A DNA stretch of 64,000 nucleotides from a virus. The stretch spans positions 30,138 through 94,137 of IMG/VR virus record IMGVR_UViG_3300048924_000619. One strand, written 5' to 3'. Within the stretch, counting starts at the first letter, position 1; every line of letters starts with the position of its first letter. Below the pieces are notes generated by a model, which was not told the DNA's origin, ran no database searches, and worked only from the letters and a program-made list of their open reading frames with translations. Positions 3,659-46,492 of the stretch are shown here, piece after piece. Made by a program: the position numbers and the translations under genes.

Positions 3659-4120
3659 ATGGCTGGTAGCCTCAACAAGGTCACGCTGATCGGGAACGTC
3701 GGCGCCGATCCGGAGATCAAGTCGCTCAACAGCGGCGACCGGGTCGCGAACATCAGGCTCGCCACCTCCGAGACCTGGAAGGACAAGGGCTCCGGCGAGA
3801 AGAAAGAGCGTACGGAGTGGCATCGCATCGTCGTCTTCGGCGACGGCCTGGTCCGGGTGATCGAGAGCTACGTCCGCAAGGGCTCCAAGATCTACATCTC
3901 GGGCGCGCTGCAGACGCGCAAGTGGAACGACCAAGCCGGCGTCGAGAAGTCCTCCACCGAGATCGTGCTCAAGCCGTACAACGGCGAGCTGATCCTGCTC
4001 AGCGGCAAGGCTGAGGGCGGTTCCGACCATGGCGGCGGCTACAGCGGCGGCCAGTCGAGCGGCGCAGCCTCGGGCGGCGCCAACGCGGGCCCGGACGTCG
4101 ACGACACGATTCCGTTCTGA
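3659..4120 (+). CDS. ssb: single-stranded DNA-binding protein
   Basis: MAGSLNKVTLIGNVGADPE, ATSETWKDK, TEWHRIV, acidic tail DDTIPF. Confidence 0.97.
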   Translation: MAGSLNKVTLIGNVGADPEIKSLNSGDRVANIRLATSETWKDKGSGEKKERTEWHRIVVFGDGLVRVIESYVRKGSKIYISGALQTRKWNDQAGVEKSSTEIVLKPYNGELILLSGKAEGGSDHGGGYSGGQSSGAASGGANAGPDVDDTIPF

Positions 4121-4127
4121 GTCCCAC

Positions 4128-4823
4128 ATGGCGGAGGCGTCCCCCGATCTGAAAGACCGGATCCTCGCGGAGATCGCGGCCCATGTGCGCGTCTACGGGC
4201 GCACGCAGTGGGACCGCGTCCGCGAGCGGCCGGAGTTCGCGCCCATCATCGGCAAGGAGTCCGGGGCCGGCGGCCGGCGGAAGTTCTTCCGCTGGGTCGA
4301 CGTGGTCTGCGCGCCCCGGCCGGATGACGCCGTCGGCGCCGGCCGGCCGCATGAGGGGCGGGACGTCGCCGCGGAGGCGCTGAGCGATGCGCAGCGGCGC
4401 GCGCTGCTCGCGGCCCAGAAGAACATCCCGGCCGCGCCGTCGCCGTCGTACATGATGCGCAAGGGTGCCCAGGCGGAAAACCAGATCAACTTCCTGGCGA
4501 TCGTGCACGAGCTGATGGCCGACGTCGGCAAGCTGCGCGGAATGTCCGTCGTCGCGGACGAGGCGGCGGCTGACGGCGAGCGGGTCAAGAATCCGCACCT
4601 GTTCGGCCAGGCGATCGACAAGCGGCTCCGCGTGATGGAGACCGCGCTGAAGGTCATGCAGGAAATCTGGGACCTGCAGTACCAGCAGCGGTTCTACGAC
4701 GAGATCACTGAGATCATCGTCACGGAGCTGGCGGCGATCCCTGACGTGCAGGAGCGCGTCATCCGGCGCCTCGCTGACCTGAACAACCGGCGGGGCATGA
4801 CGCTCTACGCCGAGCCGACCTGA
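4128..4823 (+). CDS. putative terminase small subunit
   Basis: Helical protein translationally coupled directly upstream of TerL; call is positional. Confidence 0.55.
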   Translation: MAEASPDLKDRILAEIAAHVRVYGRTQWDRVRERPEFAPIIGKESGAGGRRKFFRWVDVVCAPRPDDAVGAGRPHEGRDVAAEALSDAQRRALLAAQKNIPAAPSPSYMMRKGAQAENQINFLAIVHELMADVGKLRGMSVVADEAAADGERVKNPHLFGQAIDKRLRVMETALKVMQEIWDLQYQQRFYDEITEIIVTELAAIPDVQERVIRRLADLNNRRGMTLYAEPT

Positions 4824-6925
4824 TGGCGGGCCGGCCGCCGTCGCCATTCAACCGCCGCAAGCCGCGCCCGATCCCGCAAACGGACGCGCTGTCGGCGGCG
4901 ATCGCCCAGCTCGAGGCGCGCACCGGGCACAAGGTGACGCCGGACCAGAAGGCGATCCCGGACGGGATGACGTTCCGCCAGTGGTGCGAGAAGCTCGGGG
5001 CCGAGGGCCTCGAGGTGGACGGCAAGCCGTTCACGCTCCACGACCGGCCGGCGATGGCCTGGATCTACGACCAGATCCCGTCGACGGCGGACGAGGCCTA
5101 CAACCTCGTGCTCGTCCTGATGAAGTGCGCGCAGGTCGGGTTCACCGTCATGGAGATGCTGGCCACGGTCTACCTGGGGCTCAAGTTTGGGCCCTGCACG
5201 GTCGGCATGTTCCTGCCGGACATCAACTTGGCGGGCATGAAGTCAACTGAGCGCTTCATGCCCATCATCCGGTCGATTCCGGATGTGCACGCGCTGATGA
5301 CGCAGGACGCCGCCGACGGCTCCGGCAAGAAGCGGGGCGAGGGCAACGTCAACCGCCGGCGCATCGCCAAGGCCCTGTTCGTCTTCTCCTGGACGTCCGG
5401 CAAGGCGTCGACCGAGTCCGTCCCGATGGACATCCTCTCCTTCGACGAAGTGCAGGAGATGACGAAGGAGCAGCTGGAAAAGACCCAAGAGCGCCTGAGC
5501 GCCTCGCCGGTCCGCTTCACGCTGATGGGCTCGACGGCCAACTGGCCAGACGAAGACATCCACTTCTGGTACAAGAAGGGGTCGCAGCACCAGTTTCACA
5601 CCGAATGCCCGACGTGCCGGGTGAAGAAACCGCTCGACGACTATTTCCCGAGGTGCATCCAGTGGGATGCGGCGCGCCGGGTCTATCGCTACGTCTGCGA
5701 GGCCGGACATTGGATCGACGACCCTCAGATCGGCGAGTGGGTGGCCTTCAACGAGGAGGCTGACCCGGCGATCGACTACACGATCCCGAAGAAGCACTGG
5801 CCGAAGCGGATCCGGTCCATCCACTTCCCCCAGTTCCTGTCGCCGACGATCAGCGCCTCGGACATGATGACCGCCTACAACGAGGCGAGCGACCTCAAGA
5901 ACTACCACAACCGGAAGCTTGGGAAGCCGTTCCTCGACCCGACCGTCACGCCCGTGACGCTCGAGCATTGTGCGCGCGCCGTCGAGCTCGGCCGCGCCGC
6001 CGGCGTCCAGTGGAAGACTCGGGCGCGCGGGACCTTCATGGGCATCGACCAGATGGGCCAGTTCAACGTGCACATCATCAAGGAGCGCCTGCCCGACGGC
6101 CGCCAGGCCGTGATCCACTACGAGGAGACGTACGCGGAGGATCCGTTCGCACGCTCGAGCGAGCTCATGGAGGCCTACGGCGTCCAGGCCTGCGTCGTCG
6201 AGATCAACCCGAATTTCAACGACGCGCACAAATTCGCGAAGCGCCACCCGGGCAAGGTGTTCCTCTGCGACGGGTTCAAGGCGATCGAGGGCGACATGAT
6301 CGTCTGGGGCGACGGGCCGAAGCTCGACGTATCGGACCGGCGAACCGATGAGGACTCACGGACGCGCTACACGGTCAAGGCCGACCAGTACAAATGCATG
6401 CAGACGTCTCTCGCGCGCATCGTGAAGGGCCACTGCCTGTTCCCGGACCCGAAGGAGCTTATCCAGGAGGTCGTCGACAAGGGCGTTCGCCAGCTGGTGC
6501 CCATCCTGCCGCGGCTGTTCCTGCACTTCACGCGCACGGCGCTCGTCGCCGAGAAGGACAAGGAAACCAACAAGTACAAGCGCTCCGTCAAGAAGGTGGG
6601 GCTGGATCCACACGGTTCGTACGCTAACCAATTGTGCGACGTCGCCTGGGCGCGGGCCCACGGCACGGCGAGCTTCATCCTCCCGGAGACTGGCGACGTG
6701 GCAACTGATCAAGCTAAGCAATCTGCCGAAATGGGCATGGTCGGCCTTCCGAACCACGTCGTCAGCATGCTCAACGACCTGCCGCCTGGCGTCTGCGGCC
6801 GCTGCTCGGCCTATCCCTTCGGCGACGACAACGGGCCGCCGGCGCGCGGGATGTGCGCGGAGCGCGGGTTCGAGGTCGCCGCGGCGGATCCGGCCTGCCC
6901 GATGTTCGCGGCGGTCGAGGGCTAA
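4823..6925 (+). CDS. terminase large subunit (lambda gpA-like family)
   Basis: Deviant Walker A LMKCAQVGFT, Walker B FDEVQEM, CPTC Zn motif, nuclease GIDQ. Confidence 0.88.
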   Translation: MAGRPPSPFNRRKPRPIPQTDALSAAIAQLEARTGHKVTPDQKAIPDGMTFRQWCEKLGAEGLEVDGKPFTLHDRPAMAWIYDQIPSTADEAYNLVLVLMKCAQVGFTVMEMLATVYLGLKFGPCTVGMFLPDINLAGMKSTERFMPIIRSIPDVHALMTQDAADGSGKKRGEGNVNRRRIAKALFVFSWTSGKASTESVPMDILSFDEVQEMTKEQLEKTQERLSASPVRFTLMGSTANWPDEDIHFWYKKGSQHQFHTECPTCRVKKPLDDYFPRCIQWDAARRVYRYVCEAGHWIDDPQIGEWVAFNEEADPAIDYTIPKKHWPKRIRSIHFPQFLSPTISASDMMTAYNEASDLKNYHNRKLGKPFLDPTVTPVTLEHCARAVELGRAAGVQWKTRARGTFMGIDQMGQFNVHIIKERLPDGRQAVIHYEETYAEDPFARSSELMEAYGVQACVVEINPNFNDAHKFAKRHPGKVFLCDGFKAIEGDMIVWGDGPKLDVSDRRTDEDSRTRYTVKADQYKCMQTSLARIVKGHCLFPDPKELIQEVVDKGVRQLVPILPRLFLHFTRTALVAEKDKETNKYKRSVKKVGLDPHGSYANQLCDVAWARAHGTASFILPETGDVATDQAKQSAEMGMVGLPNHVVSMLNDLPPGVCGRCSAYPFGDDNGPPARGMCAERGFEVAAADPACPMFAAVEG

Positions 6926-8615: not shown

Positions 8616-8685
8616 CGCGGGAACCTCCGGGTATACGGGGGACATGGGGTTGAGACGGCCGCTGGGGGGAGGGTAGCTTCCTCTC

Positions 8686-8762
<77 letters not shown>

Positions 8763-9249
8763 ATTCGCCCTTTCAGGGCATCCGAGATGCGGACCACGCT
8801 CGAATAGGTGGCAATCCCTCCGGGGCCTGCGGACCGAAAGACTGGCGAGCATGGCGCTAAAGGCAAGCTTCTGGCCCGCGCCGGCTGAAAGGCCGGCAAC
8901 AAGATCCCGTGCGAACGGGGCGCGCTTGATGGGAGGCCCGCGGAAGGGCCGAACGTAGCACCCCTAGTAGGCCGGCCCCGAGGCGGTTCGGGTGCCCGTT
9001 GGCGCCGGCGGTTACGGCGTCAGAGGCCCAATGGGCCGCAGTTGGTGGAAGCCCGGCGCCAGTTTCGCCCCTTCGGGGCGTCCGATGCGTCTTGTTGCAG
9101 GTGCAAGAGCCGGCTGCGGTTGCCCGACGGGGCCACCTAGCGAGTGCCGGACGTGGTTGGTGGTTTGGTCGCCCTAGGCGGCCTCGTCCGCCAGCGATCA
9201 AAACCTGAGGGGTTAATGGGCGGTCACCGACGGGAGACCGCCCAAGACT

Positions 9250-9540
9250 TCCAAATGAGAATTCGCCCTTGCAGGGCACACAAGCTTTGGTTCGGACCCG
9301 GGTGCAATTCCCGGCGGCTCCACCCAAGCCCATCGACCGCCGCGAGAGCGGGCGGCGCCCGGAGCGAAGGGGCGTTGATGCTAACGGGACGATGGGCTTC
9401 GGGGGGCCGATCAGGATCGACGAGCCAGGGGCGCGGTGAAAGCCGCATTTGATAACTCTGAACGACAACTATCCCATCGCTCAGGCCATCGCGGCCTAGC
9501 AGGAGCCCGGCGGGGGCTTGGCAACAGAACCCCGCCACCC
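9250..9540 (+). ncRNA. ssrA: two-piece circularly permuted tmRNA (alphaproteobacterial type); outer boundaries approximate
   Basis: Acceptor piece ends GACCCGGGTGCAATTCCCGGCGGCTCCA (9322); intervening stem AAGCCCATCG/CGATGGGCTT; coding piece starts GGGGCCGATCAGGATCGAC (9403) giving G3.U70; tag frame 9458-9499 LNDNYPIAQAIAA*; terminal hairpin with GGCAACAGAA loop. Confidence 0.92.
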
Positions 9541-9637
9541 AGAGGCCTAGGCGGGCCAACCGATCACCGAAAGGGACCACGGCGGCGCCGATCGTGGCGA
9601 CTCCCCCGGCCGGTTGGTTCGACCCTAGGCCTCTGGG
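9538..9637 (+). ncRNA. candidate ~100 nt rod-like structured RNA
   Basis: CCCAGAGGCCTAGG/CCTAGGCCTCTGGG 14 bp stem plus CGGGCCAACCG/CGGTTGGTTCG 11 bp stem. Confidence 0.4.
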
Positions 9638-9654
9638 CCAACGAGAAGACCGAC

Positions 9655-10293
9655 AGCGCGCCAGCGTACCAGTCTTAGTAAATGGGTGAATCTGGTGGGA
9701 GCCTGACCGCTCCCGTTCCTGAGGGCTGGGGGGGAAGCGATTGATCGTCGCTGATACCGAAGCTCAAGGGCGACAAGATCAGGTTGGCTAGCCCGAACGC
9801 GCCGCAGCACCGCCGGCGCCAGTACGGAGGTCCCGGACCGGTTGCGCGTGCTGGCGCAGCCGCGGAATCCCCGCCCATCGTGGCTTCGGCCTTGAACGTG
9901 GGAAAGTCACCCCGGCTGCGTTCCACGCGGTCGGGCAGGCCCTTCCGGGGGATCCTGATGACCGGGGCATGAATTCGCCCGAACGGGCAACAGAGGTCTG
10001 TGCCGACAGACGGTCAGGGGCGGCCCCCGCGAGGTTTCGACTTCAGCGACGGGATCGTAAGTCCTTGGGCATCGGCCCGTGCGGTGTGCCGGCGGTTATC
10101 CGGTTGTCCGGGGGCAATTGACTGAACCCCCTCAACAAAGCTGTCAGGAGTTGCGCCCGAAGGGGCACACGAGTTGTCGGCGGGGAGGCGGTTAGCGCCG
10201 CTTCCAGCCAAGGTTGGCCAACCGGGTCAATGCTCTGCGCAGGGCGGCGACCTTAAGCGTGAATGGCATCGCGGTTCGAGTCCGTGGCGCGCA
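9655..10293 (+). ncRNA. candidate large (~640 nt) structured RNA with tRNA-like closure
   Basis: GCGCGCCA (9656-9663) complementary to TGGCGCGC (10285-10292); T-arm CGCGG-TTCGAGT-CCGTG at 10270-10286; many internal hairpins; no credible ORF. Confidence 0.5.
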
Positions 10294-10392
10294 CATGGCA
10301 ACCGCCGGCGAAACCATCTGGCGGCGGGGCATCCGAGCTATCGGAGTAGGGCCCCGCCGCTGGGGCAGACTTCCCCCGCCCCTCCCAATTCG

Positions 10393-10414
10393 GTCGTGAC
10401 GCCAGTATCGGCGC
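10393..10414 (+). promoter_or_regulatory. GTCGTGAC promoter, leaderless (portal)
   Basis: GTCGTGAC gccAgtaTcggcgc ATG; 14 nt spacer, no SD. Confidence 0.8.
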
Positions 10415-12160
10415 ATGGCCGACAATCCCGCCGCCGTTGCGACAGATCCGAACGCGCCCGCGTCGGAGCGCCACGACGCGCAGGCTGAGTTCCAGAAGTC
10501 GCACGGCACGGCCGGGATCGCGTCCGAGCTGTTTCCATCCGCGGCGATGGAGCCGGTCATTGCCCGGATCCAAGAGGTTCTGTTCGAGCAGGATCTCAAC
10601 AAGGCCGCGCAGGGAAACCTGATCGTCGGCCCCTGGAAGAACAAGCGGCCGCAAGACGGCGGCCAGTCCGTCTTCCTCGACAATTTCCAGATCCAGACGC
10701 AGGGCCCCTACTGGGATCGGCCTGGCGTCCTGGGCTTCGACGCCATGCGGTCGATGGTCGAGCAAACGCCGATCCTCAACAGCATCGTGCTCACGCGCAT
10801 CCGCCAGGTCCGCCGCTTCTGCCGGCCGCGGATGGGCAACACGGGCCCCGGCTTCGTGATCGAACACGTTGATCCGCAGGTCGAGCTCAACGACGACCAG
10901 CAAGCATCGATCCAACGCCTGACGCAGTTCGTGATCAACTCCGGTTGGGAAACGGACGCCAGGGCCCGCAAGCGCAAGAAGCGCGACCCGTTCGCGGCGA
11001 TGATGGCGAAGCTCGTGCGCGACACGCTCACGATGGACGCCTGCCCGATCGAGACCGAGTTCAAGCGGTCGCGGAGCCTGGGCCTGGACGGTCTCTATGC
11101 GCTGGACGGCGCCACGATCCGCCTGTGCACCGAGGAGGGCTACAACGGTGACGACGAGTTCTTCGCCCTGCAGGTCATCCAGGGCAACATCCGGACCGCC
11201 TACACCTACGACGACCTGATCTATGAGGTGCGGAACCCGCGCACCGACGTGACCGCCTGCGGCTACGGCTACTCCGAGACGGAGATGCTGATCCGCATCG
11301 TCACCTACCTGCTGAACACGATGACGTTCAATGGGTCGTTCTTCGACAAGAACTCGATCCCGCGCGGCATCCTCAACGTCTACGGTCAGTTCACGAACGA
11401 AGACGTCGCGGCGTTCAAGCGCCAGTGGAACGCCATGGTTCGCGGGGTCCAGAACTCCCACAACCTGCCCGTTCTGGTTTCCAAGGACCAGGAGTCCGGG
11501 ACCAACTTCACCGAGGTCGGCGGCCAGCTCAACGAGATGGCCTTCGGGAAATGGCTCTCCTTCCTGACGTCGATCGCGTGCGCGATCTTCGGCGTCGCCC
11601 CCGAAGAAATCTCCATGGAGTCGTTTGCCACGACGAGCCGCGGGCTCGGCGGGAACGACACCGAGGAGAAGCTCGTCTCAGCGAACGACAAGGGCCTCGT
11701 GCCGCTGCTCAACTTCGTCGAGGACATCTACTCCGATTTCATCCTCCAGCCCTTCTCGCCGCAGTACCGGCTGACCTTCAAGGGCCTCGACGATGAGGAC
11801 GAGGACAAGCGCTGGGAGCGTCAGAAGCTCTCGCTCACCTGGAACGAGGTGCGCGCGGTCGACAGCATGGACCCGATCGATGGGCCGCTGGGCGACGCGC
11901 CCATGAACCCCACGCTGATCGGCATCTGGGCTCAGGAGTCCGGCGTCGGCCAGCCAGAAGAGCCGGAAGAGGACTTCGGCGACCCGGACGCCGCCGGCGC
12001 CGATGATGGCGTGCCCGCCAGCGGAGAGCTGGAGGCAGGCCCGCCCGAACAGCAGACAGAAGACGCAGGCGCGCCGGATCTCGGTTCGCCTGCCGGCGGC
12101 GACGAAGTGGCCAAGGCCCTCGATTTCGGCCTGCCGATCTACGTCCTCGACCTGTCGTGA
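10415..12160 (+). CDS. portal protein
   Basis: LYALDGATIR, GYGYSETE, FFDKNSIPRGIL, IACAIFGVAPEEI, LTWNEVRA; acidic C-terminal tail. Confidence 0.92.
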   Translation: MADNPAAVATDPNAPASERHDAQAEFQKSHGTAGIASELFPSAAMEPVIARIQEVLFEQDLNKAAQGNLIVGPWKNKRPQDGGQSVFLDNFQIQTQGPYWDRPGVLGFDAMRSMVEQTPILNSIVLTRIRQVRRFCRPRMGNTGPGFVIEHVDPQVELNDDQQASIQRLTQFVINSGWETDARARKRKKRDPFAAMMAKLVRDTLTMDACPIETEFKRSRSLGLDGLYALDGATIRLCTEEGYNGDDEFFALQVIQGNIRTAYTYDDLIYEVRNPRTDVTACGYGYSETEMLIRIVTYLLNTMTFNGSFFDKNSIPRGILNVYGQFTNEDVAAFKRQWNAMVRGVQNSHNLPVLVSKDQESGTNFTEVGGQLNEMAFGKWLSFLTSIACAIFGVAPEEISMESFATTSRGLGGNDTEEKLVSANDKGLVPLLNFVEDIYSDFILQPFSPQYRLTFKGLDDEDEDKRWERQKLSLTWNEVRAVDSMDPIDGPLGDAPMNPTLIGIWAQESGVGQPEEPEEDFGDPDAAGADDGVPASGELEAGPPEQQTEDAGAPDLGSPAGGDEVAKALDFGLPIYVLDLS

Positions 12161-12478: not shown

Positions 12479-15400
12479 GTGTCCAAGCTCCCTCCGTTCG
12501 GTCTTTTCCCGACCCCCATCCGGCTGCTCGGAAACAAGGTCGCAGCCGGCGCCGCAGCAAACACGCGAGTCGGCCACCTGCTCTGCAGTGTGTCGGGCGT
12601 GGCGCTGACTGTTGTCTCGGGTCCGTTCTCGATCAGCGGTGGCGACCTCTATACCACCGGCGTCACGGGGGCTGCGGGGACCACGCAGACCGCTCGTATT
12701 CGCGCGACCGGCAGTCCGTTCATCGAGATCGATCAGGACTTCGTCATCTCGGCAGTGGGAGTCGCTGGTCCCCCCGACACGACGCCTGTCGCTTTTGATT
12801 TCGCCGACGTCTCGAACGCCGAGCTGTCCACCGACTATATCTACAGCTTCGTGGTCGCGGGCGTCGACGCGCCCTGTGCGGTCACGGCGACCGGGGCGGT
12901 TCAGGTCAAGATTAGTGGAGGAGCCTACGGGCAAGCTCCGGGAAATGCCGTCCTTGGCGATACGATCACCGTCAAGGTTACTTCGTCGAATAGTTATTCC
13001 ACGCCGGTAAGTGGTTCGTACACAGTCGGAACGCTAACCGATAGTGTCACGATTACGACGAAACTGTCGAGCACGTCAGTCTATGGCGTCGAAATCGGTG
13101 CTACAGGAACCGGCCTCTACGCCGGAATGGCGCTCGATGTCGGCAGTGAATTCACCCAAATGCCGCAGCGGTGGCACCCGTCGAAGAACCCGGATGGGTT
13201 CTTCAAGAGCGGTCCGCTTTACACCTCAACTCTCGGCTTTCCGAGCCCGTGGTGCGCCGCCATCGACCCCTATTGGTTGGGCGCGCGCTCTGAGGTCCCG
13301 GACGGCTTCGGTCTCGACGCCGTCACGCTGATCCCAGGCGGCGGCGCGAACCTGAACATGCGCGTGCCTGACGCCGCGCTGGTTCCCACCCTCCCGACGG
13401 TTTTCACCGGCGCCGGCGGCAAGCCCAACCTCTTGGCTGCGCAACTCTACTCGGCGCCTGGATACCTGATCTCGGCCAAGGGCGACTTCATCGTCGAGGC
13501 GATCATCCAGACGCCGGCGGGCAACCTCCTGGGGATGTGGTCCTCGTTTTGGACCTCGGGCCAGTTCTGGCCGAACGAGGCCGAGATCGACGTTCCGGAG
13601 TTCTTCAAGGCCCTGGCGATCGATACCGGGCCTGGCTCGTCGTCGCGCGCCGATGGCCAGACCTACATCCGGTACAACTCGATCACCAACGGGTCCGACG
13701 GCGGCGGCGCGGGCTCGGAAACACCGGCCTTCCTCGATATCTCGGACAGCCGACCCTACTGGTTTATGGCCAAGAAGACGTCGACCGGGGTCGCCTTCTA
13801 CGACGACTTCGATGTTCAAGGGACGCTTGCCCTTCGCGGAACCGCCGTCAACAACATCAACCGGTACTCCGGTGCGCACGATATCCGCATCGGTATGGGC
13901 GCGGCGCCGTATGGCGCGTCCGGAGCGGCGACGCGGACCTTCGACGCTTCGCAATGGGCGGGCGGCAAGGATCATAAGATCCTCATGTTCCGCGCCTGGA
14001 CGCCTGCCAGCCGGCCGCGCAACTTCCCGACCGTCGATCTGGGCACGGTGAACGTCGCGCCTGGCCAAACGGGCGTGACATTCCAGGTTCCCGCCGCAGC
14101 GACGCTGTGGGCCGGCAAGGTGCTGCCGAACCTCGAGGAGGTCATTGGCGGCTTCTATTCCTACGACAGCCCCGGCGCGCCGACACGCAACGGCACGACC
14201 AAGCTTCCCGGCGGGATGACCTATAGCGCGACGACGCGTCAGATCACTTGGGATGTCCCGTCGACCGAGGGCGGAACGGTCTGCGCTTACATCGTCGGGT
14301 CCTACACCGCCGGCGGCGCAGCGACGCGCGCCCGGGTCACTTTCAAGGTTGCGCCTGCGAAGCAGGGGACCTTCCCGTCGGTGATCGGGATGAACTCGGG
14401 GTCAGTCCTGAACCAGGCGGTCGCGTACACGGACTTCCACTCCGGCGACCTCACCCACTCCTACCAGAGCGTCAGCGCCGACCAGTCCTGGGTCACGGTG
14501 ACGATGGGGGCGAACAACCGCTCCTTCACCCTCACCGGGACAGCACCGGGGGTTGATCAAATCGTGACGGTATCAGGACAGGCGATTAACGGCGCGGGCC
14601 AAGTCACGCCGTTCACGACGACAATCAACGTCTCTTCGGCCTGGAGTTCGTCGGCTTGGTCGGCGCTGAAGCACGACTGGGATTTCACCGACACGACCAA
14701 GGTCTACTCGAACACCACGGGTAGCACGCTCGCCGATCCGACGGCGGGGACCGTCGCGATTGCGATGGTGAAAGACAAGAAGGGCACTGCGGACCTTACG
14801 AATGCCACGGCGAGCACGCGGCCGGTCTACATGAACATCGGCGGCATCCCGATGGCCAAGTTCACCAAGGCCACGCCGACCCATCTCGACAGCGCCAACG
14901 CCGCGATCTCCTCGGAGTTCGGCGGCGTGAACAAGCCCTTCACCGTGGTCATGGCGGTCAAGCGCGGAACGGCCGGCGTCAGCGTGCGGCCTATGTCGCT
15001 CCAGGTCTCCGCGAACTCCTCGCCCGTGGCGGTCCTATACGGCAGCTCCAACTCCTTCGGCTACCAGCGGAACGACGGCACGAACAACCGCACAATCGCC
15101 AGTGCGGGCGGCGTCGCGGCGGTCGATGAAATCCACGTCTGGACGCTCTGCTTCGACGGGACCAACCTCACGCTCCGGAAGGATGGCGTCGAGATCTTGG
15201 CGCCGACGCTCGTCAATGCGCCGCTCTCGATTGCGCTTGTCGGGATCTGCCTGGGGACCCTTCGGTCCAACGCGACGACCTGGGATACCGCCCTGGCCTT
15301 CGACGGGGCGATCGGCCGCGTCTTCGTGTCGACGGACACCTCGATCTCGACCGACGTGGTCCAGGCCGAAAACCTGCTCATGGCGCAGTTCGGCCTGGGC

Positions 15401-17179
15401 GGCACGCCGCCGGTCACGGTCACGGACAACACCCCGGTCATCACCGGGACCGTTGGAGCCAACTACATCAGCTCCACCCCCGTCGCTTCGGGCGGCATCG
15501 GTCCATACACCTGGGACCTCGACCTCACTCTGGGGGGCCCGATCCCGGACGGGTCCACGATGGATCCCGCGACGGGCATCATCAGCGGTGTCCTGACGAC
15601 CGCGGCGACCTACGCGAACATCATCCGCCGCGCCACCGACAGTAGCCCGACGGCGAAGCAAGGGAGCGCGCCGGCGTTCACTGTCACCGTCGCTGCGGCG
15701 AGCTGGACTCCGGCAGCCTGGACGGCGCTCAAGCACGTCTACGACCCTTCCGATGCGACGGCGGTCTTCACCGACACCGCCGGCACGACCGCGGCCAGCC
15801 CGACGGCCGGGACCGACAAGGTCGCGCTGCTGAAGGACAAGAAGGGGACCGCGGACCTCTCCAACGCGACCTCGACAACCCGGCCGGTCTATCAGCTGCT
15901 CAACGGCGTCCCGATGGTGAAATACACCAAGGCGACCCCGACGCACCTGGACAGCACCGCTTCGAACTGGGCGACCGAAATCGCCGGGACAAACACCCCG
16001 TACGCGATCGTCATGGCCGTTAAGCGCGGAACCTCCGGGGTCAGCGTCCGACCGCTCGCATGGTCGACCTCGGCCGGAAGCACGCCGATCCAGCATGTCA
16101 TCGGTTCCAGCGGTGGCTTCGGCTGCCAGCGGAACGACGGCACGACCCGCACAGTCACGACGAGTTTCGGCGAGGCAAACCTCGACGAACTCCACATCTG
16201 GACGTTCATCTACGACGGCACGAACTACATCATCCGCAAGGATGGGGTGGCTGTTGCTGAAAGCCCTCTGGCGGCGCTGACGACGGCGGCGATCACCATC
16301 GCCAACTTCACCGTCGGCACGACCAAGAGCGCCGCCGCGACCTGGGATACGGCCTTCGCCTTTGATGGCGCCTTCGGGGCTATCTACTTCTCGACCGACA
16401 CGACGGTGACCTCGGACATCGTCAACGCCGAGAAATACCTGATGGCGCGCCACGGGATCACGGTCGTGACCCCGACCGAGCTGGTCCCGGGCGCCGCGGT
16501 CCACGCAACGGCGGCGAACGCCAACGTCGACGTTCTTCCGAGCGCCTCGATCGTCGCCGGCGCGCTGGAGCAGTTGATCGTTCGCACTCCCAATCAGCCG
16601 ATCGCAACACCTTCAGGTTGGACCCTCAAGGCCGCCATCGACAACCGCGGCACCCCCGGAGCTGCGGGGTCGGTCGCGGAGCAGCTGTTCGTGAAGTTCA
16701 GCACCGGCTCCGCCGCGGCTCTGACGATCACCGGCACCTACAACAACCTGACGGCGCGGCGCTATGCGACCCTCGGAGTTGATCCCACCAATCCGATCGT
16801 CGGGATCTCGGCCAGCATCTCCGGAGACCCCATCAGCGGCGCGTCCGTCGCAACGACGGCGGTCACGGCCCCGGGGACCACGACACCGTCGGACCATTGC
16901 TTGGTCCGCACCTTCGTGGGTCTCGCTCTCGATGCGACGGCGGCGGGTCAATCGGGCTTCACGAACAGCAGCCTGTCGAACGTCCAGACGGCGGTCTCCT
17001 ATGGGACCCAGATCGGCGTCGGCGGCGTGATCGCGACCAACATCGGCGAGAAGTCGGTGGCTGGGCACGTCAACCCCTGGGCCGGCGCCTTCACCAGCTC
17101 GAAGCAGGTGGCGATCACCTACGCGCTCACGCCTTCGCCGACGGCGGCTGACGTCTTCACCTTCCAAGAGGATTTCTGA
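12479..17179 (+). CDS. large fibre/adhesin: Ig-like repeats, GH16-like domain, two LamG/ConA-like repeats
   Basis: T/S/A/G-rich; WSSFWT...EIDVPE GH16-type motif; putative Ig segment (GGIGPYTW...DPATGIISG); duplicated ~250 aa domain. Confidence 0.75.
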   Translation: MSKLPPFGLFPTPIRLLGNKVAAGAAANTRVGHLLCSVSGVALTVVSGPFSISGGDLYTTGVTGAAGTTQTARIRATGSPFIEIDQDFVISAVGVAGPPDTTPVAFDFADVSNAELSTDYIYSFVVAGVDAPCAVTATGAVQVKISGGAYGQAPGNAVLGDTITVKVTSSNSYSTPVSGSYTVGTLTDSVTITTKLSSTSVYGVEIGATGTGLYAGMALDVGSEFTQMPQRWHPSKNPDGFFKSGPLYTSTLGFPSPWCAAIDPYWLGARSEVPDGFGLDAVTLIPGGGANLNMRVPDAALVPTLPTVFTGAGGKPNLLAAQLYSAPGYLISAKGDFIVEAIIQTPAGNLLGMWSSFWTSGQFWPNEAEIDVPEFFKALAIDTGPGSSSRADGQTYIRYNSITNGSDGGGAGSETPAFLDISDSRPYWFMAKKTSTGVAFYDDFDVQGTLALRGTAVNNINRYSGAHDIRIGMGAAPYGASGAATRTFDASQWAGGKDHKILMFRAWTPASRPRNFPTVDLGTVNVAPGQTGVTFQVPAAATLWAGKVLPNLEEVIGGFYSYDSPGAPTRNGTTKLPGGMTYSATTRQITWDVPSTEGGTVCAYIVGSYTAGGAATRARVTFKVAPAKQGTFPSVIGMNSGSVLNQAVAYTDFHSGDLTHSYQSVSADQSWVTVTMGANNRSFTLTGTAPGVDQIVTVSGQAINGAGQVTPFTTTINVSSAWSSSAWSALKHDWDFTDTTKVYSNTTGSTLADPTAGTVAIAMVKDKKGTADLTNATASTRPVYMNIGGIPMAKFTKATPTHLDSANAAISSEFGGVNKPFTVVMAVKRGTAGVSVRPMSLQVSANSSPVAVLYGSSNSFGYQRNDGTNNRTIASAGGVAAVDEIHVWTLCFDGTNLTLRKDGVEILAPTLVNAPLSIALVGICLGTLRSNATTWDTALAFDGAIGRVFVSTDTSISTDVVQAENLLMAQFGLGGTPPVTVTDNTPVITGTVGANYISSTPVASGGIGPYTWDLDLTLGGPIPDGSTMDPATGIISGVLTTAATYANIIRRATDSSPTAKQGSAPAFTVTVAAASWTPAAWTALKHVYDPSDATAVFTDTAGTTAASPTAGTDKVALLKDKKGTADLSNATSTTRPVYQLLNGVPMVKYTKATPTHLDSTASNWATEIAGTNTPYAIVMAVKRGTSGVSVRPLAWSTSAGSTPIQHVIGSSGGFGCQRNDGTTRTVTTSFGEANLDELHIWTFIYDGTNYIIRKDGVAVAESPLAALTTAAITIANFTVGTTKSAAATWDTAFAFDGAFGAIYFSTDTTVTSDIVNAEKYLMARHGITVVTPTELVPGAAVHATAANANVDVLPSASIVAGALEQLIVRTPNQPIATPSGWTLKAAIDNRGTPGAAGSVAEQLFVKFSTGSAAALTITGTYNNLTARRYATLGVDPTNPIVGISASISGDPISGASVATTAVTAPGTTTPSDHCLVRTFVGLALDATAAGQSGFTNSSLSNVQTAVSYGTQIGVGGVIATNIGEKSVAGHVNPWAGAFTSSKQVAITYALTPSPTAADVFTFQEDF
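14633..16456 (+). repeat. intragenic duplication of a ~250 aa LamG-like domain (~14633-15395 and ~15695-16456)
   Basis: Both copies share ALKH..D..D.T, KDKKGTADL.NAT..TRPVY, TKATPTHLDS, MAVKRGT.GVSVRP and TWDTA.AFDGA. Confidence 0.85.
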
Positions 17180-24290: not shown

Positions 24291-27200
24291 ATGCTGCTGC
24301 TCCTGATGAAGGCCGATCAGCTCGGCCTGTTCGAAAAGCTCGTGCCCGTGAAGGCGAGCATCAGCTCGTCTGGCCGTCTGATCTCCGCGCACACGGCGAT
24401 CCGGCACGTCCGGCGCGTCGAGCCGACGAAGCGCCATGCCGAGGTGCTCGACCTCTTCGGACACGCGCCGCAGCCGAAGCCGGCCCTGGTCACGCCGAAG
24501 AAGCCCGCGCCGGCACCGCAGGCGGACCTGTTCGAGCATCGGCCGGATCCGCCGAAAGCCGACCTCAACGGCATGATGGCGCGGTCGCGCGATCAGCGCT
24601 TGGCGCGCGAGGCCAAGGCGAAGGAGATCGGTGCCGGCGTCGGGTCGGTCAAGCTGAAGCATGCTGACGGTCGCGCCGCGCTGCTTTCCCCGGATCTGCA
24701 ACGCGACGGCGGCTGGCGATTCACCCGCCTGGATGCCGACGGGCCGGTGGGCCACTCCGAGTACGACAGCAAGGAGGCCGCCGCTGCGGAGGCGCTGCGT
24801 GCCGGGTACTCAACCGACGCGCCGGAAGCGATCCAGCCGCACGCGCCGTTAGAACCGGCGGTCAGCCTCCAAAATCAATTACCCGCCTCCGGAATCGATT
24901 ACTCCGAGGGCCTGCCGGCCGAGCTTCCTGCTTTCGGCGTCGCGCCGGGGACGACCAAGGGCGAGCGACGGGCGATCAATGCGCTGGCCGCCTCAATGGT
25001 CAACGGCCGGAAGTCCCTGCTCGACGAGGCGCCGGCACCGGTCAATCCGGAGGTGCTCCGTCAATATTCGGGCTGGGGCGGCTGCGGCGACAGCCTGAAC
25101 GAGTTCTACACCGATCCGAACGTGGCCGCGGCCATGTGGTCCGTCCTCCATCGCATGGGCCTGGGGGAGGGCGCGAGCGTCCTGGAGCCGTCCTGCGGCA
25201 CGGGCGTCTTCCTCGAGCTGGCGCCGAAGGGCGTCAAGGTCACAGGAGTCGAGCTCGACGAAACCAGCTCCAAGATCGCGGCCACCCTGCACCCGACCCA
25301 CGAGGTGGTGAATTCCGCCCTCGAGGCTTTCGCGACGACCGACACGCGCCAGTTCGACGCGGTGATCGGCAACCCGCCGTTCGGCGATAGCCGTGGCTCC
25401 CTGGTTGCGGCCGACAAGCCGGACATCAGCCGGCCCGAGCAATATTTCGTCGATACCGCGCTGGACAAGGCGCGCGCCGGCGGCCTGGTCGCGCTCGTGC
25501 TGCCGACCGGGATCTTGGACAGTCGGTCTGCGCGCAAGCTGCGGGATCGCTGGATCCGCAAGGGCCAATTCCTCGGCGCCCTGCGCATGCCGAACACCGC
25601 GTTCGAGGCCAGCCACACGGGCGTGACCACGGACGTCGTGTTCTTCCGCAAGCGGCCAGACGAGGTCGCCGGCGCGCTGTCCGTGGTCGATCGCGACACC
25701 CTGAAACTGCTCGGCGCCTGGGACGAGGAATTCGTCGGCGGCGGCTACTTCAGCGGCCGCGGTGAGGGCAACATCCTTGGCACGCTGGAAGCCGGGTGGC
25801 GCTCCAAGGCCGGCATGGGCGACGACATCACCGTGGCAGGGTCGATGGTGGGCGTCCCGGAGGCGATCGCCAGCTTTGAGCCTGAACAGCCGTCGGGCCC
25901 GACGGGCGTGGAGGAGGTGCTCGGCGCCGTCCAGGACCAGGATCTGAAGGCTCGCATCCGCGGCGCGGCCGCGCGCAAGCCCTACGATCAGGCGAAGCGC
26001 GGCGACACCCGGGTCATCGACGGCGTGACGTACGTCCTGGAGGGCTCGCCGCTCCGCTGGCATCGCGTGGACGAGTTCATGGCGGAGCAGGCCGTCGTCG
26101 ACGCCGGCGCGCTCGGCGCCGACATCGAACGCGCGGTGCAGGGCGAAGACGTGCCCGGCCTGGCGGACCGCGTTCGCGCCTATGTCTCGGCGCACGGGAT
26201 CCCGGCGAAGAATCCGAACCTCGTCATAGCGGCAAAGCAGGACAAGGCGATATATCGCCTGCTCGGCGCCGTTAAGCAGGACGGCTCGCTCTCTGACGTT
26301 GTCGAGGGCCGTCGCGAGTCCGCCGCCGTCTCCAACTTTGACACGGCGGCGAAGACCCTCGCCCTGGAAGTCGGCTACTTCTCGCCCTCCATGGTCGCCG
26401 GCCGCTGGCATGGCGGGACCGAGGATGTGGTGCTCGACCACCTCTATGCCTCGCCAGACTATGCGATCGATCCGCGCAGCGGGACCTGGACGAGCCTCGA
26501 CCAGTACCTCTCCGGCGAGCTCTGGCCGAAGTACGACGACGCGAAAGCGGCGCTGGCCGAATCCGACTTGAAGCCGGAAGACCGGGCGAAGATCGAACGC
26601 CAGCTGGCCGCGCTGGACGAGGCGATTGCGCCGAAGTCGCTGGAGGACGTCGAGATCCAGGTGAATAGCGGCTTCGTGCCGCTGAACGTCGTGTCGGCTT
26701 TCTTCAACGAGGTCCACCCGTCGAGCTACGGCGACAAGACGCCGATGACCATCACCTATGACGAGGGCGTCTTCGCCGTCATGGGTGGCGGCTACGAGGC
26801 GCACACGCTGCGCAAGTACCTGAACCGCGACGGCGTGCGGAAGGACGACGATCTGCCGACGATCGAACGGTGGAACCGGGCATTCAAGGAGTGGCTCTGC
26901 GCCTCCGCCTATCGCGACGAGGTCGAGGAGCTCTACAACCGGAAATTCCGAGGCTTCCGCCAGAAGGCCTATTCGGAGGAAGCGTTCGAGGTTCCAGGCC
27001 TGCGGTCCGACGGCCTGAAGAGCTACCAGTGGAGCGGGCTGCGCTGGGCTCTGGAGGCCGGCAAGGGGATCATCGCGGCCGACGTTGGCCTGGGGAAGAC
27101 GGCCCGCGCGCTGATCCTCAACAAGCTGATGAAGATCACGGGGCAGGCCAAGCGCCCCATGATCGTGGTCCCGAAGTCCGTGGCGGCCAACTGGATGCGC

Positions 27201-30200
27201 GAGGCGGAGAAGTGGTTCCCCGGCTCGTCCGTCATGGTGATCGGCGAGACCTACAGCCGCGACAAGAACGGCGAGCTCAAGGGGCGTGGCGATACCGAGG
27301 CGGAGCGGAATCAGAAGTTCCACGACATCCGGCAGAACGACTACGACTTCATCCTGATCACGCAGCCGGCCTGGAATGCGCTCGACCTGGATCCGGAGAC
27401 CAAAGAAAAATACGCCAGCTCCGACTTCTGGGAGAAGCGGAAGGAAGGCCTGGGCAAGGGCCCGAGCGCCAAACAGCTCGCCCGCCAGAAGGAAGCCCAC
27501 GACGCCAAGATCGCGAAGCAGGACTTCCAAAGCCGCTCGGACGCGCTCTACTTCAATGACCTGGGCGTCGACGCCCTCATCTCCGACGAGATGCACGCCT
27601 ACAAGAACCTGTTCGAGGCGCGGGACCGCTTCGGCCAGCAACCGAAGTTCCTCGGCGGTTCGTCCAGCTCAAAGCGGGCGGCGGACATGCGCTGGAAGAC
27701 GGACTGGCTGCGCGACCAGACCGGCGGTCGCAACGTCTATGGCCTGACGGCCACGCCGACGAAGAATAGCCCGCTTGAGGTCTATTCGATGCTCTCGCAT
27801 ATCGCCCCTGAGGCGTTCCTGAACATCGGAATCCGGAACTCCGAAGACTTCCTCGACCGCTTCTGCGAGTTCAAGGAGGAGAACGTCCTGGACACGAATG
27901 GGCGGATGACCCGCTCGCTCTGCGTCAAGGGCTTCAAGAACCTGTCCGAGCTGCGCGAGATCATGCGCCGCTACATCGACCGGAAGACGGCTGAGGACGT
28001 CGGCCTGCAGCTGCCGGCGAAGGACGATCGGCAACACCTCGTCGATATCTCGGCCTCCCAGAAGGAAGTCTACGCCGAGTTGCGCGAGCTTGCGGAGAAG
28101 GCGAAGCAGGCCGGCAACGACGCCAGCGGCGAGGCGCACCCGTTCTCCATCATGCACAAGATGGACCGGGCGACGCTCGACCTGGAGCTCTACGACCCGG
28201 TCCGCTACGCTGGCGCCCGGTCGCCCAAGCTGGAGCAGGCCGTCACCAACATCACATCGGGCATCAAGGAAGGCGGCCAGATCGTCTTCTGCGACGCGAT
28301 CGAGACCCATGACAAGCTGGTCGGCCTCCTCGTCGCAGCGGGGATTCCCCGCGATCAGATCGGAGTCCTGAACGCCAAGGTCGCGCCCACCTCGGCCAAG
28401 CGCCAGAACATCGCGGAGGCCTACCGGGCGAAGAAGCTGCGCGTGGTCATCGGCAACTCGACGATGGAAGAGGGCGTCGATGGCCTGCAGGCCGACACGA
28501 CCGACATTCACCACCTCAACATCCCCTGGACGCCGGCGGCCATCCAGCAGCGGAACGGTCGCGGCCTTCGCCAGGGCAACACCGCAGAGGCCGTGCGCCT
28601 GCACAACTACCTCGCGAAGGGCACGTTCGACGGCTACCGCTATCAGACGATCTCGGCGAAGAAGGACTGGCAGACCCTCCTCTGGGACGGCGGCGACCGC
28701 GTTGAGAACCTCGCGTTCGAAGGCGGCATGAACCACGAGGAGATGTTGATCGCGCTCGCCGAGGATCCGGACAAGGCGCGCGAGGAGTTGACGAAGAACA
28801 AGGAGTTGGCGCAGGCCAAGCTCGACGCGCAACAGTACGCCGACGCGGCGGAAGCGTACCGGGCCTATCGGAAGATGCGCGCCAGCCTCAAGAAGCTGGA
28901 CGCGGGCTCGCGCGCCAAGGCCTCGGGCCAGCGCCTCGAGCACAAGCTGAGCATGATGCGGACCTCGCTGGAGGCGAACCCGTACTTCAAAGCCAAATCC
29001 GCGATCGACGCCGACCATGAAATCATGATCGCGCCGGGGTCTGGCGACGCCATCGCGCCTGGCGCGGGCCTCGACGTGCCGCCCGAGGGCAAGATCACCA
29101 CGGGCAGATATGTGGTCGAGAAGGTGTCGCCGGATCACGGTTGGGTTGAGCTGCGGCGCTGGGGCGAAACCGGGAAGGCCGGGCGCATGCTCGTCGATCT
29201 GGCCGACCTCTCCCACGCGAAGGTGACGGAGCACGACAAGGCGGCGGAGGACGCGCACATCACGGCGAAGACGGCTGAGGTGCTCGCGGCCGGCGCCAAG
29301 GATCTCGACAGCTACAAGAAGCTGCGGGAGTTCCCGTCGGCGGCGATCGAGGCCAACCGGGAAGCGATCAGCCACACGGTCAAGCGCGGCCTGAAGGAAT
29401 ACAAATTCCGCGACGGCTACGAGGCGCGGATCGGGATCATCCGGCCAGAGGGCGCGCGAGCGCTGCCGAGTTACGAGGCCGGCAAGCTGACGGACGCCGA
29501 CCTGCCCATGCTGCCGATCGACGAGCACAAGAAGCTCGCGTTCGACGCCTACGCTGCGGACGAGGCCGGCAAGAAGTTCACGAAGGTGCCCGAGACCGGT
29601 CGCCGCGGCGCCTCCACGGGGCGGTATCGCGATGAGCTGCGCTACCCGGGCGACCACTATAACGGCGAGACGAAGAACCGCTGGGCGAGCGTGATCGAGA
29701 ATCTCTGGGGCCCGGAGGGGTTGTCGGAGGCCCACCGCCAGTTTGAGTCTCGGCAAATGGAGGCCGCGCGCCGCGCACCGGACTTGAAGACGGCGATCGC
29801 CCACGCCCTGCCGACATCCATCCGGAAGGAAGGCTACATGCCGACGGTGAAGAGCAAGTGGGGCCGCAAGGCCTTGGCCACGCTCTACGCGAAGGCGAAG
29901 GCTGGCGGCCACCTGCGTACGCCGCTGCTCGACCACCTGGAGACCAAGGAGGTGCGTCAGGGCTACGGGCTCAGTGAGCGCCGCTACCAGACGCCAGTCG
30001 TCAGCGAGGATCACTTCTCCGATGGACGCACCTACGGATCCGTCGTCAAGGAGCCGGTCGGCTCGGCCCTTGCCAAGCTCGCCGTCGCCAACGGTCACGT
30101 CGACCTTGCATCGGCCATGGCCGTCGATCACGCCGAGACGCCGGAAGAGGCCATGTCCAACCTTGGCCGGCTGCCCGAGCACCCGGCGCGCGAGGACGCC

Positions 30201-30266
30201 AAGCGCCACCTGATCGCCAAGCATCCTCACCTGGGCCAACTCGAGGAGGCGCCGCGTGCAGCCTGA
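24291..30266 (+). CDS. DarB-like N6-adenine methyltransferase / SNF2 helicase fusion
   Basis: FYTDP, VLEPSCGTG, IGNPPF; ADVGLGKT, DEMH, TATPTKN, QRNGRGLRQGN. Confidence 0.88.
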   Translation: MLLLLMKADQLGLFEKLVPVKASISSSGRLISAHTAIRHVRRVEPTKRHAEVLDLFGHAPQPKPALVTPKKPAPAPQADLFEHRPDPPKADLNGMMARSRDQRLAREAKAKEIGAGVGSVKLKHADGRAALLSPDLQRDGGWRFTRLDADGPVGHSEYDSKEAAAAEALRAGYSTDAPEAIQPHAPLEPAVSLQNQLPASGIDYSEGLPAELPAFGVAPGTTKGERRAINALAASMVNGRKSLLDEAPAPVNPEVLRQYSGWGGCGDSLNEFYTDPNVAAAMWSVLHRMGLGEGASVLEPSCGTGVFLELAPKGVKVTGVELDETSSKIAATLHPTHEVVNSALEAFATTDTRQFDAVIGNPPFGDSRGSLVAADKPDISRPEQYFVDTALDKARAGGLVALVLPTGILDSRSARKLRDRWIRKGQFLGALRMPNTAFEASHTGVTTDVVFFRKRPDEVAGALSVVDRDTLKLLGAWDEEFVGGGYFSGRGEGNILGTLEAGWRSKAGMGDDITVAGSMVGVPEAIASFEPEQPSGPTGVEEVLGAVQDQDLKARIRGAAARKPYDQAKRGDTRVIDGVTYVLEGSPLRWHRVDEFMAEQAVVDAGALGADIERAVQGEDVPGLADRVRAYVSAHGIPAKNPNLVIAAKQDKAIYRLLGAVKQDGSLSDVVEGRRESAAVSNFDTAAKTLALEVGYFSPSMVAGRWHGGTEDVVLDHLYASPDYAIDPRSGTWTSLDQYLSGELWPKYDDAKAALAESDLKPEDRAKIERQLAALDEAIAPKSLEDVEIQVNSGFVPLNVVSAFFNEVHPSSYGDKTPMTITYDEGVFAVMGGGYEAHTLRKYLNRDGVRKDDDLPTIERWNRAFKEWLCASAYRDEVEELYNRKFRGFRQKAYSEEAFEVPGLRSDGLKSYQWSGLRWALEAGKGIIAADVGLGKTARALILNKLMKITGQAKRPMIVVPKSVAANWMREAEKWFPGSSVMVIGETYSRDKNGELKGRGDTEAERNQKFHDIRQNDYDFILITQPAWNALDLDPETKEKYASSDFWEKRKEGLGKGPSAKQLARQKEAHDAKIAKQDFQSRSDALYFNDLGVDALISDEMHAYKNLFEARDRFGQQPKFLGGSSSSKRAADMRWKTDWLRDQTGGRNVYGLTATPTKNSPLEVYSMLSHIAPEAFLNIGIRNSEDFLDRFCEFKEENVLDTNGRMTRSLCVKGFKNLSELREIMRRYIDRKTAEDVGLQLPAKDDRQHLVDISASQKEVYAELRELAEKAKQAGNDASGEAHPFSIMHKMDRATLDLELYDPVRYAGARSPKLEQAVTNITSGIKEGGQIVFCDAIETHDKLVGLLVAAGIPRDQIGVLNAKVAPTSAKRQNIAEAYRAKKLRVVIGNSTMEEGVDGLQADTTDIHHLNIPWTPAAIQQRNGRGLRQGNTAEAVRLHNYLAKGTFDGYRYQTISAKKDWQTLLWDGGDRVENLAFEGGMNHEEMLIALAEDPDKAREELTKNKELAQAKLDAQQYADAAEAYRAYRKMRASLKKLDAGSRAKASGQRLEHKLSMMRTSLEANPYFKAKSAIDADHEIMIAPGSGDAIAPGAGLDVPPEGKITTGRYVVEKVSPDHGWVELRRWGETGKAGRMLVDLADLSHAKVTEHDKAAEDAHITAKTAEVLAAGAKDLDSYKKLREFPSAAIEANREAISHTVKRGLKEYKFRDGYEARIGIIRPEGARALPSYEAGKLTDADLPMLPIDEHKKLAFDAYAADEAGKKFTKVPETGRRGASTGRYRDELRYPGDHYNGETKNRWASVIENLWGPEGLSEAHRQFESRQMEAARRAPDLKTAIAHALPTSIRKEGYMPTVKSKWGRKALATLYAKAKAGGHLRTPLLDHLETKEVRQGYGLSERRYQTPVVSEDHFSDGRTYGSVVKEPVGSALAKLAVANGHVDLASAMAVDHAETPEEAMSNLGRLPEHPAREDAKRHLIAKHPHLGQLEEAPRAA

Positions 30267-46041: not shown

Positions 46042-46069
46042 GCGCGGCCTTGGGCTAGGAGCAACATGA

Positions 46070-46492
46070 ATGTCTGAGCAAAACCTCAAGGTCCAGTCCG
46101 GCAACCAGATCGTCGTCATGCTCGACGGCAAGGCGGTCGGTCTGATCCAGTCAGTGCGCGGGAGCGACGACTATTCGCCAGAGGCCGCCAGCGGCATCGG
46201 CGACATCCACGTGCAGGAATATGTGCCGAGCATGGCGCGGCACAACATCACCGTCTCGACGATGGTGCTGCGGAAGGCGAACCTCCGGAGCCAGGGGATC
46301 GCCGCCAAGAATGGCGACGACGTCCTCAAGGGCCGTGTGTTCGACTTCGTGTCCATGCAGAAGGACGGAACCGTCCTGCGCGCCTGGCGCGGTTGCTCGT
46401 ACGCGAGCGGCGACGTCGAGATCGCCAAGCATGCGATCGTGATGTCGAGCGCGCAGTTCAACGCGCTGGATGTGGACGGCGACGGCATCTAG
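46070..46492 (+). CDS. tail tube protein
   Basis: VQSGNQIVVMLDGKAVG..Q...GIGDIHVQEYV; follows sheath. Confidence 0.85.
   Translation: MSEQNLKVQSGNQIVVMLDGKAVGLIQSVRGSDDYSPEAASGIGDIHVQEYVPSMARHNITVSTMVLRKANLRSQGIAAKNGDDVLKGRVFDFVSMQKDGTVLRAWRGCSYASGDVEIAKHAIVMSSAQFNALDVDGDGI

Follow-up and report, generated by a model that had tools for sequence, protein, structure and literature searches.

The species 1 and species 2 RNAs of phage T4 (rnaC/rnaD) are stable RNAs encoded in a phage tRNA gene cluster, and PeSLs are promoter/stem-loop cassettes that mediate modular shuffling in the hyperplastic regions of T4-type phages. GOLLD and ROOL are large ornate RNAs (10.1101/2024.12.08.627333). The Methylophilales phage Melnitz carries a permuted ssrA of the alphaproteobacterial type, with a glutamine riboswitch attached to the ssrA region (PMC9004378). 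In addition, tmRNA and the bacterial Y RNAs (YrlA) carry tRNA-like domains (PMC4201824).

The locus described herein shares features with each of these systems. The window that we analyzed, a stretch of 64,000 nt, makes up the right-hand part of an IMG/VR provirus record that is 94 kb long, and it contains a non-coding island in which a tRNA gene, a permuted tmRNA gene and unassigned segments are separated by copies of a short hairpin. A first-pass annotation had proposed that positions 9655-10293 form a single structured RNA of ~640 nt, with a T-arm and, stacked on it, a tRNA-like acceptor stem that joins the two ends. This proposal is partly right, in that the region is non-coding and RNA-like and carries a real T-arm, but one closed RNA of 640 nt is not supported. 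It is reasonably likely that the stretch is instead a run of cassettes, separated by hairpins, within a phage RNA island. The cassette of greatest concern in this report combines a long near-perfect hairpin (LH) with the conserved segment that follows it (module A).

As in the T4 rnaC/rnaD cluster, the island has non-coding RNAs interleaved with phage tRNA genes, presumably on a common precursor, and some of these have tRNA-like ends. Unlike those of T4, the island modules, which are predicted here from sequence, are larger (~430 nt), lie beside a two-piece tmRNA and are split by a dedicated repeated hairpin. The phage resembles Melnitz in carrying a two-piece permuted tmRNA; however, the tmRNA here ends at 9540, the candidate RNA lies outside it, and no riboswitch family in Rfam matches the candidate RNA. 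With GOLLD and ROOL the locus has in common a large non-coding RNA candidate that adjoins tRNA genes in a phage or prophage, but there is no covariance match at E<=10, and the conserved unit measures ~430 nt and is found in two phages only. The resemblance to tmRNA and YrlA lies in a T-arm of tRNA type carried at its 3' end by a sequence that is not a tRNA, although here the T-arm is accompanied by no supported acceptor stem, D-arm analogue, G3.U70 pair or Rfam match. A gene for Ro60 (TROVE, PF05731) is absent from the 94-kb record, and control genomes gave the expected matches. Finally, as with PeSLs, a short repeated stem-loop flanks units that vary in order and content between related phages, whereas most of the units here are tRNA or tmRNA genes and RNA-like non-coding segments, and no promoter was recognized beside the hairpin. 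The candidate LH plus module A counts as a member of a broad kind, namely phage-encoded structured RNAs located beside tRNA and tmRNA genes.

The non-coding island upstream of the portal gene

The source phage is temperate and alphaproteobacterial, from soil or rhizosphere. A tyrosine integrase is encoded at the left end of the record (record 685-1173), and the proteins closest to its portal were found in metagenomes of soil and rhizosphere and in genomes of Phenylobacterium and Parvibaculum. The portal relatives P0001 and P0003-P0007 show 69-80% identity to the window portal, P0007 being a prophage protein of Phenylobacterium ferrooxidans. The elements of the island follow one another in the order tRNA-Met, two unassigned segments, permuted tmRNA, LH plus module A, segment B, segment C and portal gene (Table 1).

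Table 1. Coordinates of features in and around the island, as positions in the window
Feature	Position	Strand	Remarks
Large terminase gene, GpA-type	4823-6925		
ORF of 195 aa	8028-8615		
Non-coding island	8650-10414		1.75 kb; between terminase and portal genes
tRNA-Met (CAT)	8686-8762	+	ARAGORN; Rfam RF00005, 63 bits; opens the RNA island
Permuted two-piece tmRNA, including 5' hairpin	9259-9540	+	Rfam RF04321, 58.6 bits, at 9280-9499
Long near-perfect hairpin LH	9536-9640	+	MFE -66.5 kcal/mol, z = -6.3
Module A, conserved non-coding with covarying local helices	9641-9970	+	L007:62-369, nhmmer E = 2.9e-32
Proposed 5' closing strand GCGCGCCA	9656-9663	+	Inside module A; L007 reads GCGTGCCG there
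Punctuation hairpin copy 4, GAATTC-GCCC-gaac-GGGC-AACAGAG	9971-9995	+	Ends module A
Segment B, lineage-specific non-coding, short hairpins	9996-10149	+	z = 0.05; no codon periodicity
Punctuation hairpin copy 5, GTTGC-GCCC-gaag-GGGC-ACACGAG	10150-10173	+	
Segment C body, lineage-specific non-coding, no D or anticodon arm	10174-10269	+	z = -0.57
Orphan tRNA-type T-arm, then acceptor-3'-like GCGCGCA and C	10270-10294	+	No CCA after
Two-level stem-loop GGCGGGGC-[ATCCGAGCTATCGGAGTAG]-GCCCCGCC	10321-10358	+	Common to L007:885-925
GTCGTGACG motif	10393-10401	+	14 nt before portal ATG; 3' limit of island
Portal gene	10415-12160	+	Pfam PF04860, E = 4e-18

The earlier statement that 9655-10293 holds no credible ORF is borne out by codon-position GC, which is flat across 8650-10450; in the flanking genes GC3 is ~0.9 and GC2 ~0.42. 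Small protein genes within the island are ruled out by this absence of codon periodicity and by frame-breaking indels. The remainder of the genome is tightly packed, and an ORF-free stretch of 1.75 kb is unusual there. GC skew is positive over the whole island, and no sigma-70 promoter or intrinsic terminator was recognized on the + strand. The contigs obtained from DNA sequencing runs (n=4) were short and of low depth, and they matched the window exactly apart from one 2-nt insertion at 10255-10256.

The hairpin that punctuates the island recurs in the form (A/T)ATTC-GCCC(N)-loop-(N')GGGC-A/G with fixed flanks, and its five copies, at 8762, 9060, 9259, 9971 and 10150, are all on the + strand. 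The fifth stem pair covaries, occurring as T-A, C-G and G-C. The CCA end of tRNA-Met abuts the first copy directly. The third copy heads the tmRNA gene, and in the related contig L007 its counterpart lines up with the 5' hairpin in the alpha_tmRNA model of Rfam. Copies 4 and 5 lie inside the proposed 640-nt RNA and split 9655-10293 into cassettes. The relatives that carry the motif (three copies in L007, four in L005 and two in L010) have portals that are 58-83% identical, and every one of these copies lies in the island that precedes the portal gene. When IMG/VR was scanned for the motif, only scattered single matches, compatible with chance, were returned.

A role for these hairpins as promoters of an N4-like virion RNA polymerase was rejected because the giant proteins of this phage are DarB-like methyltransferase/helicases and not polymerases. 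The giant ORFs concerned (24291-30266 and 30636-35165) match the DarB-like antirestriction methyltransferase/helicase families phrog_11801, phrog_10089 and phrog_62, and these matches suggest P1-style anti-restriction proteins. Elsewhere in the window, a 590-nt internal direct repeat whose copies are 67% identical (14625-15189 and 15684-16248; record 44762-45326 and 45821-46385) lies inside an ORF of 1566 aa (12479-17179) that has no Pfam or PHROG match.

Two more non-coding segments, bounded by the same punctuation hairpin, occupy 8786-9258 between tRNA-Met and the tmRNA gene. One of them, M2 (9086-9258), has a folding z of -3.2 that is about equal on both strands, and no homolog of the segments within 8786-9258 was present in any fetched locus.

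The tmRNA gene lies immediately upstream of the proposed 640-nt RNA. Its tag frame reads ...NDNYPIAQAIAA with the stop TAG at 9497-9499, and its 3' motif is GGCAACAGAACCCCGCCACC. The ends of the gene were set by homology to L007, where alpha_tmRNA RF01849 matches over its full length, and the 3' end at 9540 is fixed by L007, by the unrelated IMG/VR phage L099 and by the Rfam model. Matches to the tmRNA models (RF00023, RF01849 and RF04321) are confined to 9280-9499, upstream of the proposed 640-nt RNA. The acceptor piece of the window tmRNA (9319-9327) ends ...GGCTCCACCC and not ...CCACCA; L007 and L099 have CCA. This non-CCA acceptor end probably explains why ARAGORN in its default mode misses a tmRNA that Rfam detects. 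In L099, a homologous permuted tmRNA is present at 5780-6110 between tail-region genes. It is 77.5% identical over 218 nt, has a tag ending ...NDNHYQSHALAA, and is missed by ARAGORN.

The L099 tmRNA occurs without LH, module A or the other island modules, and therefore module A is not part of the tmRNA. The possibility that module A is a 3' extension of tmRNA is ruled out on this ground and by L007, in which the module lies upstream of the tmRNA. A second tmRNA, whether one-piece or permuted, built from GGTTTCGAC at 10035 and the T-arm was also rejected, since the acceptor strands are non-complementary and there is neither a tag frame nor a model match.

At the 3' edge of the island, the two-level stem-loop finds its L007 counterpart only weakly with nhmmer (E = 0.38). 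The 9-mer GTCGTGAC(R), which precedes the portal ATG, has 11 copies in the window versus ~1.9 (1.86) expected, and 10 of the 11 are on the + strand. It occurs also at 1335, 7014, 7787, 12154, 36771, 43193, 46552, 58236 and 60778, usually 13-25 nt before a start codon. In dozens of related loci (many at ~3976-3987) whose portals are only 47-60% identical, the 9-mer occupies the same position ahead of the portal ATG. Across the clade, GTCGTGAC(R) may function as a promoter, an operator or a signal for translation.

LH and module A

Portal-anchored searches gave about 100 loci, and only one of these shares island sequence: L007, a metagenome contig of 2.8 kb whose portal is 83% identical. Positions L007:5-280 match window 9593-9865 and L007:377-666 match window 9262-9540, and the full correspondence pairs L007:1-370 with window 9593-9970, both ending at the punctuation hairpin. 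LH plus module A is located upstream of the tmRNA in L007, where the hairpin that ends module A is followed by the tmRNA, and downstream of the tmRNA in the window. The L007 contig contains no T-loop anywhere and nothing like segments B or C. LH, which begins before the proposed 5' end of the 640-nt RNA, accompanies module A in L007, and its 3' half is 83% identical to L007:1-57. LH plus module A (9536-9970, ~430 nt) is a unit that moves as a block between related phages, as these arrangements show.

Folded alone, module A gives a z of -0.55, like dinucleotide shuffles. The window and L007 differ within it by indels of 1, 1, 2, 1, 3 and 9 nt, and these mark the module as non-coding. RNAalifold applied to the two sequences gave 108 pairs with 13 compensatory changes and 0 broken pairs, in a structure that was chosen on the same two sequences used for scoring. 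A local subset of 75 pairs is 100% paired in both sequences and holds 13 compensatory changes; slid controls gave 0-2. Because the alifold structure had been chosen on both sequences, each sequence was also folded alone and scored in the other. On the + strand, the single-sequence folds of the 3' domain (~9868-9968) have compensatory changes in 6-7 pairs, one-sided changes in 4 and broken pairing in 3; on the - strand the corresponding figures are 1-3, 0-1 and 10-12. The 5' domain of module A displays the same strand trend, more weakly. Identity in the 3' domain is 54%, about as low as at sites evolving neutrally (57.7% for 4-fold sites of the portal gene), and the central part of module A and the LH arm are 83-84% identical to L007.

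These results, which come from two sequences only, point to selection on + strand RNA structure in module A. We therefore regard LH plus module A as a candidate new structured RNA with preliminary covariation, known from two phages. Several interior helices had been listed in the first-pass annotation. The local hairpins GTCTGT-GCCG-ACAGAC and GGAGGCGG...CCGCTTCC are present as quoted, but the long helix pairing 9836-9862 with 9912-9933 is not conserved, its 3' partner being shortened by the 9-nt deletion in L007, and the covarying pairings in that region are local hairpins. The description of the stretch as a structured non-coding RNA likewise holds in part. It is supported, by comparison with the one homolog L007, for 9641-9970 together with the preceding hairpin at 9536-9640, and it finds no support in segments B and C, which have z values like those of shuffles, no well-defined predicted fold, and no homolog in the loci and phages searched.

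Searches with blastn and nhmmer over the ~100 portal-anchored loci and 118 further loci revealed no homolog of A, B or C beyond L007, and covariance models of both module A domains (R1 and R2) found no further copy in 99 sources comprising 0.8 Mb of related loci. No homolog of A, B or C was found by blastn among INPHARED phages, a sample of 401 Alphaproteobacteria genomes yielded chance-level short matches only, and exact patterns from module A retrieved no similar sequence from IMG/VR. When the same 401 genomes were searched with the portal protein, only the already known genome was recovered.

Comparison with the Rfam 15 covariance models (4227 families, permissive filters, E<=10) gives the region no family assignment: the models for GOLLD, ROOL, RNase P, introns, tmRNA and Y RNA are silent at E<=10. 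Across 9640-10600 nothing was reported at this threshold save mir-8521 (18 bits, E = 1.2), which we take as a chance match.

The proposed closing stem and the orphan T-arm

In the proposal of a single ~640-nt RNA, the acceptor stem stacked on the T-arm would serve end maturation, as in tmRNA and YrlA. The two quoted strands are indeed present as an 8-bp complement, with GCGCGCCA on the 5' side and TGGCGCGC at 10285-10292 on the 3' side, and a canonical T-loop lies next to them. Moreover, the ends pair in the MFE fold of the exact stretch, whose + strand has a folding z of -2.3 and folds 39 kcal/mol better than the - strand. However, shuffles show the same strand difference, and hence both values reflect base composition (G>C).

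The closure itself is statistically undistinctive. There are nine occurrences of GCGCGCCA in 64 kb (~0.14 per kb), and the window contains 45 copies of GCGCGCC and 131 of GCGCGC. The T-stem and the closing stem need the same two bases, 10285-10286, and with a 5-bp T-stem the closing stem is left as the palindrome GCGCGC/GCGCGC only. The 5' closing strand is used in a local hairpin, where its GCCA pairs as GCCAG/CTGGT and an A-U pair is replaced by G-C through a double change in L007. The third pair of the closing stem is G-C and not the G3.U70 pair. In L007, the single homolog, GCGTGCC replaces GCGCGCC and there is no T-loop, such that neither of the two proposed end features is conserved, an outcome that the first-pass annotation had itself named as contrary to its proposal. 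From these sequence comparisons, the acceptor-type closure with 9656-9663 is a chance match between common GC-rich strings.

The T-arm, CGCGG-TTCGAGT-CCGTG at 10270-10286, is real and tRNA-like. The sequence GGTTCGANTCC has two copies in the 94-kb record, one in tRNA-Met and one in the orphan T-arm (reversed control 0), and the two T-arms are 93% identical over 14 nt. The reported lack of a D arm and an anticodon arm nearby was confirmed, as there is no tRNA match in 9540-10414 at E<=10. ARAGORN in default mode, with or without introns, found only tRNA-Met. At 70-80% of its threshold it reported matches amid many obvious false positives, and a tRNA split by a giant intron was rejected as resting on such sub-threshold noise. 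An attP remnant was rejected as well, given that the integrase is 39 kb from the T-arm, the T-arm sits between the terminase and portal genes, and the record holds no second copy of the fragment. Searching all loci with blastn-short yielded no source tRNA for the T-arm region. On the simplest reading of the sequence, the T-arm comes from a tRNA gene that belonged to this rapidly changing array.

Related islands in L005 (2180-2560) and L010 (1-260) contain working tRNAs along with degenerate or orphan tRNA pieces. L005 includes an orphan T-arm/acceptor piece and a tRNA-like gene without an anticodon arm; this kind of gene in the related island scores 31 bits with Rfam (model 7-64). In the L005 and L010 islands, a tRNA 5' half (acceptor plus D arm) abuts a punctuation-type hairpin and is followed by ~190 nt of conserved non-coding sequence. 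This half could represent an intron-bearing or otherwise unusual tRNA.

Interpretations of the island

We favor the cassette reading for 9655-10293, and it can be stated as a sequence of processing steps. The island would be transcribed rightwards as a precursor, which fits the positive GC skew and the placement of all elements on the + strand. RNase E-type cleavage would act on this precursor at the AU-rich AAUU(C) that immediately precedes each hairpin, with the first such cut falling directly after the CCA of tRNA-Met and thus releasing that tRNA at its 3' trailer. Each downstream piece would keep a protective 5' hairpin like the one heading alphaproteobacterial tmRNA precursors, and LH may provide an RNase III-type cut site between the tmRNA and module A. 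The roles given to RNase E and RNase III here follow from resemblance of the sequences to what is generally known of sites for these enzymes. By this scheme, the proposed 640-nt stretch would yield about three RNAs of ~430, 175 and 145 nt, and the T-arm of segment C would be a 3' handle used in end maturation or else the relic of a tRNA gene that has decayed. The hairpins could also act at the DNA level as sites of cassette exchange, as the differing module order fits this equally well.

One more ambitious possibility, which we put forward only tentatively, is that the island is a processed polycistronic array of novel stable RNAs. LH plus module A would then be an RNA of a new class, ~430 nt in length, that travels with tmRNA; the AAUUC-GC-hairpin would provide punctuation and 5' protection; and the T-arms would be functional mimics of tRNA ends, serving either in maturation or as decoys for tRNA-attacking host enzymes.

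It is also rather unlikely that the stretch is mostly non-functional, consisting of a decaying tRNA array and DNA-level repeats in which the hairpins are recombination or cassette-exchange sites and module A is similar in L007 by recent descent or transfer. Several findings are in keeping with such decay. At the corresponding position, relatives have tRNA genes, small ORFs and degenerate pieces of tRNA; the cassettes of close relatives follow different orders; segments B and C lack both homologs and excess stability; and a tRNA-3'-end-like remnant is located at 10368-10387, just before the portal signal. However, 1.75 kb lacking any ORF is unusual for so tightly packed a genome. Furthermore, the 13 double changes keep pairs in module A and are strand-specific where identity is at the neutral level, the hairpin stem covaries and is strictly confined to one strand, and GC skew is positive, as expected of RNA genes.

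A narrower proposal, compatible with the cassette model and in our judgment doubtful, is that hairpin 5 and segment C (~10150-10295, ~145 nt) make up a separate small tRNA-like RNA whose T-arm and acceptor-like end are functional, be it in RNase P/Z processing, CCA addition or as a decoy. The T-arm is of tRNA grade and unlikely to occur by chance, orphan T-arm and acceptor pieces recur in L005, and GCGCGCA pairs at 6/7 positions with UGCGCCC, a 5' partner that lies closer, at 10151-10157. However, this partner overlaps the stem of hairpin 5, no CCA is encoded, and the predicted ensemble gives the T-arm a probability of 15-18% with no dominant acceptor pairing. In addition, the 20-mer spanning the T-arm and acceptor matches IMG/VR exactly only once, by chance, within coding DNA that holds no tRNA.

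A single ~640-nt molecule is highly improbable, given the fortuitous closure described above, two island-wide punctuation hairpins within its bounds, a conserved block that starts at 9536/9593 before the proposed 5' end, the relocation of its 5' module in L007 away from any T-arm, B or C, and the lack of a D-arm analogue and of any Rfam match. The evidence does not support a giant RNA held together by a tRNA-like end, which would be a new architecture.

The cassette organization favored here has consequences of its own. If the modules are expressed, the island would be a compact system in which to examine the assembly, processing and exchange of non-coding RNA cassettes by phages, and LH plus module A would offer a candidate for a new RNA family with a link to the manipulation of translation or ribosome rescue by phages.
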